From contig OZ024743.1 in NCBI GenBank assembly GCA_964016885.1, positions 346,084,001 to 346,148,000 on the forward strand: a DNA stretch of 64,000 nt. The letters run 5' to 3'. How positions within the stretch are numbered: the first letter of the stretch is position 1; every line of letters starts with the position of its first letter. The stretch comes from Eledone cirrhosa. Lineage: Eukaryota. Position numbers and translations under genes: made by a program. This document shows, one piece after another, positions 45,678 to 53,160 of the stretch. A model generated the notes under the pieces. That model searched no databases and had not been told where the DNA came from. It was given only the letters and a program-made list of their open reading frames with translations.

Positions 45678-47270
45678 CTCCCTCTATACGTCTTTCTCCT
45701 TTCCTCTCTGTCACTTTCTATCTCTCTCTGGGTGAAATCTGCTGTACAGATGTCTGGAAAGGAATGGGCTCCGCTAGGCTTAAAATGCCCCCCCCCCTCT
45801 TCCCAAAAGCAGTATCTCAATACGGCGCCCCTACGACTCTCTCAAGATTTACGAGACCATACATACACCACACAAATGCCGGGGATATCTTGATAGTACT
45901 CCATTGTGACTATATCTTCATCAGGTGCGTATTCTAAATGTACAACACTTTGATAATCGACGAAAACTGTCAACGATACCATCACGTTGCAAGGTAGGAC
46001 ACGAAATTTTGCGAGGCATGGTGCTTAGCGACGTTAGATACTTTCACTCTGATGGCTGAGCTTCGCTCTCCAACGTTTTATTTTACAGTTATCATGGTAC
46101 ACAGGAACCAAAAGCTTTTGTGGCAGTATCGGATGAAACAAAATTAGGATGAGGAAATTTATTAGTCCTTTACATGCTGACTGTTTGACAACGAATGACG
46201 CGTCATTCAAGTTCAGCAAAAGCCAGGTATGTGCATCAATATATGTTGCTCCCATCTACAGACATTTGTCACCCTAACGTCATGAATTCTCGTGTTAAAT
46301 ACTCTCTCTCTCTCTCAGACACATATGCCCCTACACACACAAATGCATATATATAAAGAGAGAGAGAGAGAGAGAGAGAGAGAGAGAGAGAGAGAGAGAG
46401 AGTTAGAGAGAGAGAGAGGGGGAGAAAGAGTTAGAGAGAGAGAGAGGGGGAGAGAGAGTTAGAGAGGGAGGGGGGGAGGTAGAGAGAGAGAGATATCAGG
46501 ATTTAACCAGTTTTAAATTAGTAAGACAATCAGTATTCAGCAGAGTACCAATACTTCGGATAGTAGAATGTAACAATTTTAGAGAGACGAAGCCCGGCGG
46601 CTGAGCTCTTGCCGTTTCAATAACTACTTCGAATACATGTTTAAATTCGGATCACTTTTCGACAGACACCCACTACATATAGATCTTCAAATCCAACACA
46701 TACATAGTTGTTTTAAGTAGCTCATCTGATGACATTTCATATGATATTTCATTTCCCCAAACAATCATAATAGAATAACAAGGACTTTCTACTTGCTACT
46801 TAAAACCACTTCATTTTATGCGCCTTGGGCTCACGAAAGGATCGAATTTTCCTATCCTATCATTCGCGCGGAAAATAAAAATAAGATAACACACACACTC
46901 AAACACACACACAATCTGATCGAGAAAGAGAGATACATAGATACACACACAAACACACAGAGAGAAACACATAATACATACATACGTATATATATATATA
47001 TACATATATATATATATATATATATATATATATATATATATATATATATATATATATATATATATATACATACATATATATATATATATATATATATATA
47101 TATATATATATATATTGTTATACTTTGGGAGGGTCATGTTGCCAATAAGAAACACACGCACCAGTTGCTTTCACTTCAATTTAATTTAATATATATTTAT
47201 AAATTTACAAATTTATAAATTTCTGGTTGGTTGGTTGGTTCCACAACCAGATAGTTGTTTATATATATAT

Positions 47271-47315
47271 AGTCATAGTTCTTTCGTCACACACTCTGTG
47301 ACCTCTTCAGTGACT
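47271..47315 (-). ncRNA. Minimal hammerhead ribozyme in the 3' pLTR of family A
   Basis: AGTCA-CTGAAGA-G-GTCACA GAGTG TGTGAC-GAAA-GAAC-TA-TGACT. Confidence 0.8.
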
Positions 47316-47589
47316 GGGGATTTCTTTCTTCGTTTCTGTGCCTTTCCTTTCTTCTATCCTACGCCATTTTGTTTGTGTGTGGGTTGCGTGCTCAGTTTGC
47401 GCATGCGCCACATCCGGGTGTCTGTGTGTGTTTGTGTTCATTTTTCTATTTTTCTATTTATATTTGTTTGTTTATTTATTTATTTATTGTTGGTTGGTTG
47501 TTTGTTCTATGTGTGTGTGTGTTTTCATTTTGTGTGTGTTTTCAATTGTAAGTTGTTTATATATGTGTGTGTGTGTTTTCATTTTGTCC

Positions 47590-50500
47590 TTAATTGTAAG
47601 TTGTGATGTTGCTGTTCCACTCATATTTTCTATTTAATTTTGGTTTTAATTCTTTTATGCTTACTGCCTCTGTAATTTGCCTAAACATTGCGTCTTTCTT
47701 GTGTGTGGATTCTATTTTTATTTCTATGCTCTCTAATTTACCCCTGTGTTCTATCTTAGCATGTTGGTAGAGCACAGATGATTCTTTACTATCTTGGAGG
47801 TCTCGCCAGTGTTCATTTATTCGTTCCCCTATACTACGAGCTGTCTCACCTATGTACACTATATTTTTGTTTTTGTTTCTACATTGTCCCCCAGTACATC
47901 TTATGCTATATACTACATTTCTAGTTTTACAGTTAATATGGGGGCTTATTTTACAGGTTATACATTTCTTATCTATACATGAGGGTCTTTGGAACGGGTA
48001 TGTCTTGCTAATAAGTGTTTTTACGGAGGTACCAGGTCTTTCTACTATCTTAATATTGAGATTATGTTTCTTTAGGGCCCTTCTAAATTTGTAGGCTAGT
48101 TCGCCTCTAGGGGTTGTATTGATGAACATTACACTCTGGTATTTATTGCTATCATACCATGAGTTTATTCTATTGGCATTGTTCTTAGTTCTTTCTATTC
48201 TATTCCAAAATTTGCTCCTATACAAGGGGCAGGTCCCATTTATGTCATTATTTACCATTTTTTCCCATTTGGTTCTGGCTCCTTTATACACTCTGATTCT
48301 ATCTCTCTGATTGTAGCCAGAGAACTGCATACGGTGGATGAAGTGTTGTATGTGTCTCTCTAGTTCTTCGGGGTTGCACATGCGGGACACATTTCTCATC
48401 ACCCGTATCAAATCCGCAATCAGTATGTTGATTTTGGTATGGTCCGAAATGGCCGAGTTTCGGTGGATCAGATGTTTGGAAGTCATGGGTTTGGCATAAT
48501 GGGAATGGAGGATTTGTTTTTGGTTGTTAATAGTATCTAACCAGAGCTCTGTGTCTAGTACAGGTAATCGATGGTTGGGGTGTCTACTTGGGTAGTCTAT
48601 AGTAACTCTAATGCTCTGGTGGATGGAGTTTGCTATTTGCTGGATGCTTTCCATTGTGTTTTTCTCAGGTTCCTGACTGTTCTTTAGTGGGGGTGTCTTA
48701 ACTACGATGTTTATATCATCTACGTAGCGGGAGTACATTATCAGGGTTAAGCTGTCTTCTAATTGTTCTTTAAGTTTTTGTTTAAGTCTACTGTCCCACC
48801 ATACCATGAACAAGTTAGCTATGTCGCCTGCAATGCTAACACCAATGGCTGCTCCTTCCTCTTGGGCATATGTTTTACCATTAAATTTGAACATATGTTC
48901 CTTAAGGGTTAATTTTATGCTGGCCCCTACCGCATGTGCAATCATTTTCTTCAGTTCATCGTGGTTTTCGGGTGTCCGTATGGCTCTGGTCCACCCGTTC
49001 CATCTATCTGTGTGGGTTTTCTTGGCCATTGAGGTAATGGTAGGTGGTCTGCCTCTTGCTGGTCTTGTAGGGCACAGGTTGCTAAGGTCATAAGTGTCTA
49101 GGTAACTATTACTATGGGTAAGCTTAAGTAGAAGTCCCAGCTCACTGGTATCAATCCCACGGAACTCAACCTTGCTCTCGCTGATCATTTCGACGCATTT
49201 CTCCACAGCAAAATCCACGTCAATAGATGGATACAGGGACACAACATCCATACTGCCTATTATGCAGTTTGTTAGGTCCCCAGATCGGTTACCCGCGCCG
49301 ATTCTGCTGAGGAGGTCCTCCGTGCTGTCACACACATCTGGGGACATCTCAATGATGGGGCGTATGATCAGGGAGAGGAAGTAGGACAGTCTGTAGTTAC
49401 TAGCAATGTTAGCCCCACAGACTGGCCGTGTTGGTGGTCCCGCGACAGGGTCCCAGCCCGTTTTATGGTCTTTTCGAAGCCCATACAACGCCGGCACGTC
49501 ATTGTTCCAGGCCTGGAAGTTGTTGGCAGTCCTTTTGTTGGGCTGCATTATATTTGTCCACATCACCATATGGGCATTGAGGGTTTTTTCTCTATCCTCA
49601 TGCTCCTGTGGTGTTACCTCTCTTGTGTTAGTGATGTGGGGTTGCATTGCCTGGATGTAGTTTGGCAGGCTGTCAACCGACATTCTGCCAGACTTGTCTG
49701 TTGGAAAGCATGCTATCTCTCCATTACGCGAGCGCTGCATGAGCTTACGCAAGCCATTTGCAGATTCTTCTCCCAGTTGCTGGGCCTCTATTCTATTATG
49801 CTTCTTGCTATACTGTTCTATAATATTTCTAAGTTCGGATTTAGCTATACTAAATTGTGCTTCTGTTTGTTCATCGACCTGCGACGGCAACTGCGTGCGT
49901 TTGTTAAATGGCAAAGTCGTGGCGTGGACTCGTCGTAGGTCGAATGATTTATCGGAGGGGTTATAAAACGGAGAGTTCCAGGCTGCTGCTTTATGTGTAC
50001 TAGCGCTATTGTTAGTTGTGTTGTTTCTATTTCCACCAACAGCAGCAGCCTCAGCTTCATGGTTGTTTCTATGTCTCTCATAATTACTCCTGTCTCTTTC
50101 CACTGGCTCAATGTTGTTATCTACCCTATTTTGTGTGTCTGTGTGTTCGTCTTGGTTATTCTCTTTGTCCTTAGTCTCCCTACTCCTTTTAATCCTATTA
50201 CTTTCTCTTATTTCTCTGATTTCTGTGCTACTGTCATTACTTGTTTTCGGTGTCTGTGTGTTTGTTAAGATTGTAGTGGTGGTGAGAGGCATTGAATGTG
50301 TGTGTGTTGTTGTTGTTGATGTGTGTTGTTGTTGATGTGTGTTGTTGTCTCCGTGTGTGTGTGTGTTATCGTTGTTGTGTGTGTTGTTATTGTTGTTTGT
50401 GTTTGCGTGTCTGTTGTTGTTGTATCTGGGTATGTTGCTGTTGTTGTTGTTGTTGATGTGTGTGTTGTTGTTATTGTTGTCTCCGTGTGTGTTGTTATTG

Positions 50501-51580: not shown

Positions 51581-52740
51581 GGGGATTTCTTTCTTCGTTT
51601 CTGTGCCTTTCCTTTCTTCTATCCTACGCCATTTTGTTTGTGTGTGGGTTGCGTGCTCAGTTTGCGCATGCGCCACATCCGGGTGTCTGTGTGTGTTTGT
51701 GTTCATTTTTCTATTTTTCTATTTATATTTGTTTGTTTATTTATTTATTTATTGTTGGTTGGTTGTTTGTTCTATGTGTGTGTGTGTTTTCATTTTGTGT
51801 GTGTTTTCAATTGTAAGTTGTTTATATATGTGTGTGTGTGTTTTCATTTTGTCCTTAATTGTAAGTTGTGATGTTGCTGTTCCACTCATATTTTCTATTT
51901 AATTTTGGTTTTAATTCTTTTATGCTTACTGCCTCTGTAATTTGCCTAAACATTGCGTCTTTCTTGTGTGTGGATTCTATTTTTATTTCTATGCTCTCTA
52001 ATTTACCCCTGTGTTCTATCTTAGCATGTTGGTAGAGCACAATATTAGCAAGACATACCCGTTCCAAAGACCCTCATGTATAGATAAGAAATGTATAACC
52101 TGTAAAATAAGCCCCCATATTAACTGTAAAACTAGAAATGTAGTATATAGCATAAGATGTACTGAGGGACAATGTAGAAACAAAAACAAAAATATAGTGT
52201 ACATAGGTGAGACAGCTCGTAGTATAGGGGAACGAATAAATGAACACTGGCGAGACCTCCAAGATAGTAAAGAATCATCTGTGCTCTACCAACATGCTAA
52301 GATAGAACACAGGGGTAAATTAGAGAGCATAGAAATAAAAATAGAATCCACACACAAGAAAGACGCAATGTTTAGGCAAATTACAGAGGCAGTAAGCATA
52401 AAAGAATTAAAACCAAAATTAAATAGAAAATATGAGTGGAACAGCAACATCACAACTTACAATTAAGGACAAAATGAAAACACACACACACATATATAAA
52501 CAACTTACAATTGAAAACACACACAAAATGAAAACACACACACACATAGAACAAACAACCAACCAACAATAAATAAATAAATAAACAAACAAATATAAAT
52601 AGAAAAATAGAAAAATGAACACAAACACACACAGACACCCGGATGTGGCGCATGCGCAAACTGAGCACGCAACCCACACACAAACAAAATGGCGTAGGAT
52701 AGAAGAAAGGAAAGGCACAGAAACGAAGAAAGAAATCCCC

Positions 52741-52785
52741 AGTCACTGAAGAGGTCACAGAGTGTGTGACGAAAGAACTATGACT
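52741..52785 (+). ncRNA. Minimal hammerhead ribozyme in the inverted pLTR of family A
   Basis: Identical motif on the plus strand. Confidence 0.8.
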
Positions 52786-53160
52786 ATATATATATAAACA
52801 ACTATCTGGTTGTGGAACCAACCAACCAACCAGAAATTTATAAATTTGTAAATTTATAAATATATATTAAATTAAATTGAAGTGAAAGCAACTGGTGCGT
52901 GTGTTTCTTATTGGCAACATGACCCTCCCAAAGTATAACAATATCGGTTTCAACACACGATTTCAGATAAAGAATCTTGCTAAACAAATTCAGAAACGAA
53001 ATATATATATATATATATATATATATATATATATATACACATATATATATATACATATATATACATACACACACACACATATATATATATATATATATAC
53101 ACATATATATATACATATATATACATACACACACATACACACAAAAATATATATATATAT

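Follow-up and report, generated by a model that had tools for sequence, protein, structure and literature searches.

We analysed a 64,000-nucleotide (nt) stretch of the Eledone cirrhosa genome (assembly GCA_964016885.1, contig OZ024743.1, positions 346,084,001 to 346,148,000, forward strand), hereafter the window, with a focus on the retroelement at window positions 47112..53004. By its sequence, this is a Penelope-like element (PLE) of ordinary layout. The partial tandem pseudo-long terminal repeats (pseudo-LTRs), the inverted 5'-truncated copy and the tail typical of endonuclease-bearing (EN+) PLEs are all present, and (TA)n flanks the insertion on the left and on the right. Every coordinate given in a preliminary description of the locus holds. 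The minus-strand frame extends from stop to stop over 51435-47590 (1281 aa) and encodes 1270 aa from the ATG at 51402, in agreement with the open reading frame (ORF) of about 1270 aa announced before. The direct repeats 47112-47776 and 51377-52041, already described as identical, show no difference over 665 nt each and are offset by 4265, and the predicted hammerhead cuts after 51541 and 47276 are indeed 4265 nt apart. The left insertion end lies 160-164 nt downstream of the 3' predicted cut, where it shares 4 nt (ATAT) with the flank, and the 5' end lies 500 nt upstream of the 5' predicted cut, both as earlier estimated (~160 and ~500 nt). Finally, the inverted arm 52043-53004 differs from the ORF copy only at the site noticed previously (47891/52165). 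This site corresponds to residue 1171, G versus E, within RCT-x-GQC, and the odd allele (G) is carried by the ORF copy, not by the inverted arm. In the numbering used below, the cut-to-cut unit is u1-u4265, the ATG is at u139, the left end at u164 and the right end at u224. The features are as follows.

46987..47115, no strand: (TA)n target, left, from the sequence
47112..47776, minus: 3' pseudo-LTR, ending at the short start site u164 (ATG+26) with an ATAT overlap into (TA)n
47272..47315, minus: minimal type I hammerhead, predicted cut after 47276 (CUA)
47276..51540, minus: cut-to-cut unit of 4265 nt, putative template RNA
47590..51402, minus: open ORF of 1270 aa (translation, domain matches, structure model), comprising in order an N-terminal domain, an Asn-rich low-complexity stretch, a TERT-like reverse transcriptase (RT), a Cys linker and a GIY-YIG endonuclease
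47593..47979, minus: C-x4-CxxC linker and GIY-YIG endonuclease with two Cys in the core; private E1171G at 47891
48841..49251, minus: RT motif A to motif B, 131 aa apart, at the position of the telomerase insertion in the fingers
51377..52041, minus: 5' pseudo-LTR, read as the start of a second pass; hammerhead, predicted cut after 51541
52043..53004, plus: inverted 5'-truncated arm, ending at the long start site u224 with a 60-nt tail; third hammerhead, predicted cut after 52780
53001..53162, no strand: (TA)n target, right, from the sequence

The three hammerhead motifs were detected by scanning the whole window on both strands, with at least 4 pairs required in stem I; Rfam at its gathering threshold gave no hammerhead match over the window. 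At the sequence level, the pseudo-LTR motif possesses the core and the stems I and II of a minimal type I hammerhead, and both stems form in the predicted fold. Changes of the hammerhead within the family are located in loop II, loop III and the H of NUH, and stem II covaries in a sister family that is about 71% identical.

The family and its start sites

The genome searched amounts to 3.0 Gb. A 41-mer of the hammerhead has 4950 exact matches and a 29-mer at the start codon 23,958, whereas a 35-mer reached only by copies of about unit length or longer has 120 (210 with two mismatches). The sample consists of 60 stretches from the first 100 listed start-codon matches, most of the listed long copies and extensions; its long copies are 72 single loci among the first 100 listed full-depth matches and 11 multi-match loci, with 20 exact and 90 inexact full-depth matches beyond those listed. 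L055 and L058 (overlapping) and L139 (a duplicate of L138) were dropped before counting. The final tally of arm ends and pairs covers 153 loci, and 804 of the 4265 unit positions (microsatellites and gap-rich sites) were masked.

The element had been called probably active. For the family this stands: its sequences indicate that it has been active recently, 33 of 73 units with the whole ORF being open and 29 of 40 scored matches being exact over 311 nt. For the window copy it does not, as the 35-mer with the G allele (Gly1171) matches the genome once and that with the A allele (Glu) 315 times. Because E1171G is private to this copy and no descendant carries it, the evidence for activity is restricted to the family, and the window copy is not shown to be a source. 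Since G is private and the arms share alleles, we also rejected the G/E mismatch as a sign of two source RNAs. The proposal of a helper enzyme was not supported either: within 1 kb of the first 100 listed start-codon matches there is no same-strand neighbour, so that no short tandem derivative of the family was seen among them. The suggested preference for (TA)n was borne out, with TA repeats in 197 of 214 3' flanks.

Arm ends are concentrated at two positions. Within u140-260, 258 of 283 fall exactly at u164 (125 ends) or u224 (133 ends), both of which end in ATAT followed by CG, and ATAT overlaps the target at both. Moreover, 102 of the 106 inverted (head-to-head) insertions pair one short with one long end, and the sister family does so in 18 of 18 insertions (two within the window, by eye; two tail-to-tail neighbours and two single arms are excluded from this count). 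The farther-reaching arm may be of either kind (45 versus 44 in 89 simple pairs). The pattern suggests that both target strands are primed, each at its own site, and one start per target strand would explain the one-sided tail described in PMC8557442 and PMC3846280 (these and the other papers cited here are used for the accessible parts of their text). The predicted RNA fold around the two starts is no better than that of shuffles (z -0.17). The sister PLE family occurs in the window at 55665-58150 and 9245-10150, each time with one short and one long arm; one of its 38-mers has at least 5402 exact matches, and its long end is found at either of two positions separated by about 12 nt.

The two arms of an insertion also share the marks of their template. 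In 64 pairs, 47 private alleles are common to both arms, and at sites of shared alleles the arms agree in 470 of 535 cases, 36 of the 65 disagreements belonging to two loci. Three insertions display dense sense-strand A-to-G clusters in both arms, with 30 sites common to the arms in L059, 23 in L107 (5 differences) and 102 in L215 (0 differences). The edit patterns of L059 and L107 match the genome solely in the two arms of their own insertion, and in every edited arm that was flagged the changes are A-to-G in the sense orientation. ADAR editing of the template RNA is the likely cause, an assignment that draws on the generally known preference of these enzymes. Taken at the level of sequence, these data argue strongly that one RNA was primed twice; two polymerases on overlapping parts of one RNA would need strand displacement, as would rolling. 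A genome-wide search for edited copies one unit apart returned 11 matches and no same-strand pair at one-unit spacing, and the A-to-G excess among private alleles present in all repeats (8 of 25 versus 4 T-to-C) is too weak to be used. In L214 and L215, editing extends about 1 kb upstream of the cut and ends about 50 nt downstream of it.

Repeats, templates and competing explanations

Crossing of the ribozyme site had been presented as a peculiarity of the window copy; it is instead the norm of the family, as 69 of 97 unselected arms cross the cut site, and arms measure 2.7 units in several loci and 6.4 in one. Three templates had been considered, a circularized unit RNA copied more than once around, an uncleaved read-through transcript and a template jump. 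This was the right set, left undecided at the time, and the sister copies favour re-reading of a unit RNA. In 64 arms longer than a unit, the repeats differ at 231 of 99,957 compared positions (L139 still being included here), and 25 private alleles are found in every repeat of their arm (two counted in both M037 arms, five in a seven-repeat array). For alleles present in at least three loci, repeats agree in 325 cases and disagree in 54, 30 of the latter in one mosaic. In a tree, repeats and arms cluster by insertion along a ladder of subfamilies. Four lineage alleles lie downstream of the cut and are present in both repeats in 8 of 9 carrier cases (three others aside), indicating that the first-copied segment is not inherited separately. 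Repeats thus share template variants, with M036, L059, L138, L043 and L158 as exceptions, and such uniformity implies a mechanism that renews identity at each generation, either a circle or exact end-to-end jumps. Re-reading of a unit RNA by one of these two routes is probable, and the circle is the route to which we give moderate preference.

We propose, with moderate confidence, that both arms of this insertion, whose ORF is intact, were primed on one unit-length RNA that could be re-read, most simply a circle closed at the cut site. The enzyme would likely nick both strands of the (TA)n tract, and both DNA ends would prime on the same RNA molecule, at u164 and u224, presumably by pairing of ATAT with the target. 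The 4.27-kb unit RNA would have been cleaved and ligated into a circle, which would be read more than once around while the trailing polymerase displaces the strand ahead of it, and the two cDNAs would finally be joined head to head.

The scenario of PMC11167929, in which uncut read-through RNA of tandem or two-LTR parents is copied from internal starts, with unequal exchange and conversion keeping the parents uniform, appears unlikely as the general explanation. Read-through from a two-LTR parent should make the last repeat the odd one out, whereas in comparisons of two repeats and the other arm (mosaic L059 excluded) the odd one was the first repeat 27 times, the last repeat 27 times and the other arm 31 times. 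Lineage alleles are found on both sides of the cut in every repeat, across the subfamily ladder; about half of the long arms end at u164 at their 3' end and thus lack the u224 site; and long arms have no shared 5' ends, those of 71 such arms being scattered, never three within 10 nt. However, M036 requires two unlike units, L059 can be explained by a linear RNA whose upstream repeat alone was edited, edited templates carry dead ribozyme cores, and arrays of 2 to 7 units exist, one of them with DNA-level expansion. Read-through was probably used at least sometimes, a minority of insertions having likely been copied from uncut read-through RNA or with a switch of template. We consider it still less probable that the template was a linear cut unit, never ligated, with the RT jumping end to end at each 5' end on the same or a sister molecule. 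Such jumps would yield equally uniform repeats, and they are in line with the template switches in L138, L059 and the 3' end of L043, with a mild excess of 5' ends at the second crossing, with the single duplication at the cut site in 255 crossings (6 nt, L165) and with an M037 variant present in both repeats of one arm only. Against them, 253 of 255 crossings are without insertion or deletion beyond TA slip, and 5' ends do not pile up at the first crossing (3 of 97 within -4..+16). End-to-end jumps reportedly leave scars as a rule in work on R2.

A different origin of the inverted arm, by fold-back self-priming of one cDNA or from an antisense template (PMC3846280), is very improbable. Identical edits in both arms would fit it too, and the arms of L054, L062, L114 and L215 begin at the same palindromic position. 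Yet the short-start arm reaches farther upstream in 45 of the 89 simple pairs, many of them under one unit, and fold-back cannot build such pairs; the sense-strand direction of the edits in all flagged arms also speaks against it.

Several observations weigh against a self-cleaved circular unit RNA as the template. Both arms of M036 (L036+L223) share a private 342-nt deletion that is in the first-copied repeat and missing from the upstream one, a pattern that a one-unit circle cannot produce and that calls for two unlike units or for early conversion between the arms. The first 0.9 kb of the long arm of L059 is unedited and of an older subfamily, L138 switches haplotype within an arm, and the 3' end of L043 is mosaic. 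Near the second crossing there is an excess of 5' ends (7 against 2.6 expected; P 0.017, in an interval picked after inspection), as would fit a linear RNA cut solely at its 5' ribozyme. The seven-repeat array L043-L046 has nested variants, indicating that DNA-level expansion occurs, and L158 looks gene-converted; both patterns can mimic re-reading. With ties counted against, the strictly nearest relative lies within the same insertion for only 45 of 87 repeats, because young copies are near-identical. In edited templates the ribozyme core is disrupted by changes of A9, GAAA or the cleavage A, implying that these templates were uncut or were edited after closure. The hammerhead is modestly conserved, with 3 of 44 sites variable versus 7 of 50, 9 of 56 and 5 of 44 in the flanks and 0 of 43 just before the ATG, and stem I of the sister family has merely 2-3 pairs. 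In vitro, Poseidon of Anolis carolinensis did not need cleavage, and its starts are non-homologous to the target and without strand difference (PMC11167929). Finally, in the first set the two arm junctions coincided modulo one unit more often than expected (14 of 48 within 250 nt versus 7.0), but this was not repeated in new loci (2 of 11 versus 1.5 expected) and was not used as evidence for two polymerases on one circle.

Some loci deserve separate mention. The array L043-L046 (G000:C6:65.20-65.23 Mb) has 6.4 units and a different 3' 400 nt, which suggests expansion at the DNA level after insertion. L037-L039 and L183-L184, with total lengths of 20.9 kb and 17.8 kb, have at least 2 units in each arm, and in either insertion there is a single difference among all its repeats. 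The span u840-1320, which takes in the Asn/Thr-rich microsatellite of the ORF, ranges in length from 365 to 649 nt among copies and is mostly equal across the repeats of one insertion.

The encoded protein and its lineage

The whole ORF gave no match in a Pfam scan. The endonuclease passes for PF01541 (GIY-YIG; 23.5 bits versus a cut-off of 22.6), the RVT_1 match (E 1.3e-4) is below cut-off, and a sequence search of the PDB found solely I-TevI (E 0.038). The CCHH motif of the endonuclease is present, with Cys 1169 and 1174 between VVY and YIG and the His downstream. The structure model of the RT has a pLDDT of 89 and its best fold matches are TERTs (Z 15.9, root-mean-square deviation 4.1, 374 residues aligned), so that the modelled enzyme classes as a telomerase-like RT. 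The closest named relative is a protein of Octopus vulgaris (68%). Within the ORF, an Asn/Thr-rich microsatellite occupies window positions 50300-50670.

A distance of 131 aa separates motifs A and B, exceeding that of canonical PLEs by about 70 aa, and the spacing is 128-140 aa by one rule in all 50 proteins with both motifs matched (55 stored). For comparison, it is about 61 in PenelopeD, 84 in Naiad-Amil and 118 in human TERT. A GRPP-like segment recurs along with this spacing. According to PMC8557442, canonical PLEs with a C-terminal endonuclease lack a fingers insertion, and because that paper denies it to them, the E. cirrhosa lineage would fall outside the clades described there. The linker, C-x4-CxxC-x7-C, is short and Nematis-like in a by-eye comparison with the text of Fig. 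S2 of PMC8557442. It agrees with the CX2-5CxxC that precedes the endonuclease in Nematis, a clade from which the element differs by the fingers insertion. It has 7 aa between CxxC and the next Cys, unlike the approximately 25 aa of Neptune. Hydra elements lack CCHH and have a CxCX5C linker and DKT, whereas the E. cirrhosa protein has the inner Cys pair and DKS; KDHK is common to both. The fingers insertion is shared with Naiad/Chlamys and TERT, whereas the endonuclease is C-terminal here and N-terminal in Naiad/Chlamys. The (TA)n target is a further likeness to the described clades (Nematis, Neptune, Hydra, Naiad), none of which, in the text at hand, unites all the features. The lineage is set apart by this comparison of motifs and linker with the descriptions of the clades. 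No description of it was found in the literature searched, which did not include subscription papers or Repbase, where it may be catalogued, and the motif RPVCG is absent from the portion examined of the PMC8557442 supplement.

Other features of the window include an open fragment of another GIY-YIG endonuclease at 53165-53530 ([20 protein letters not shown]), adjoining the right side of the insertion and probably the remnant of an older PLE. Near-perfect fold-back elements of one family, with different centres, lie inside (TA)n at 1646-2134 and 38198-38628; the hammerhead scan found none in them. The inverted repeats 4377-5031 / 7875-8529 (655 nt at 99%) and 24020-24918 (310 nt at 93%) are unrelated to the PLE family.

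Comparison with known systems

The layout, the internal starts and the circle hypothesis have already been published, and the origin of pseudo-LTRs, inversions and tails in Penelope elements is an open question according to PMC8557442 and PMC11167929. Two published proposals, the circle and tandem read-through, conflict, and the E. cirrhosa family can test them from sequence: it is young, has about a hundred more-than-unit copies and carries natural editing barcodes, and the analysis supplies exact sites (junction 4265/1, starts 164 and 224). It is a tentative reading of ours that the circle is both message and template, that double priming and rolling together yield pseudo-LTRs, multimers and the one-sided tail, and that the element represents an undescribed lineage with a fingers insertion. 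Among mobile elements, the Penelope group is the one most closely related to telomerase. An ability of the enzyme to target (TA)n, prime both strands and copy more than 10 kb per arm would, if true, be of interest for gene insertion.

In the literature searched, subscription journals lying outside it, we found no copy-level test of the circle on an autonomous coding element, nothing on Penelope twin priming, inverted copies or rolling circle, nothing on ADAR and cephalopod retrotransposons, and solely PMC8557442 on octopus Penelope/Neptune.

Canonical EN+ PLEs are described with partial tandem pseudo-LTRs, an inverted 5'-truncated copy and a one-sided tail (PMC8557442, PMC3846280), and the E. 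cirrhosa family resembles them in layout, in the C-terminal GIY-YIG with its inner Cys pair, in the microsatellite target and in the Asn-rich ORF insert. However, their tail measures 30-40 nt, compared with 60 nt here, where it is present on exactly one arm in 102 of 106 pairs. For Poseidon, two internal starts and extension of both strands were observed in vitro, and tandem read-through transcripts were proposed (PMC11167929). Its starts downstream of the ATG, its AT-rich target and its hammerhead upstream of the starts are likenesses, whereas both E. cirrhosa starts have ATAT at their end, each arm of a pair uses one of them, and the repeats behave as re-read units. The circle model of PMC4209133, put forward tentatively, comprises cleavage, ligation and more-than-unit reverse transcription, and its minimal hammerhead has an extra base before stem II and a short stem III. 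The accessible text of that paper contains no copy-level tests; the E. cirrhosa family adds indirect genomic ones and a coding unit of 4.27 kb. Metazoan non-LTR retrozymes (PMC7229834; bioRxiv 10.64898/2026.07.22.740005) combine a type I hammerhead and head-to-tail units with demonstrated RNA circles. Their units are non-coding and of 170-400 nt, whereas the E. cirrhosa element is autonomous.

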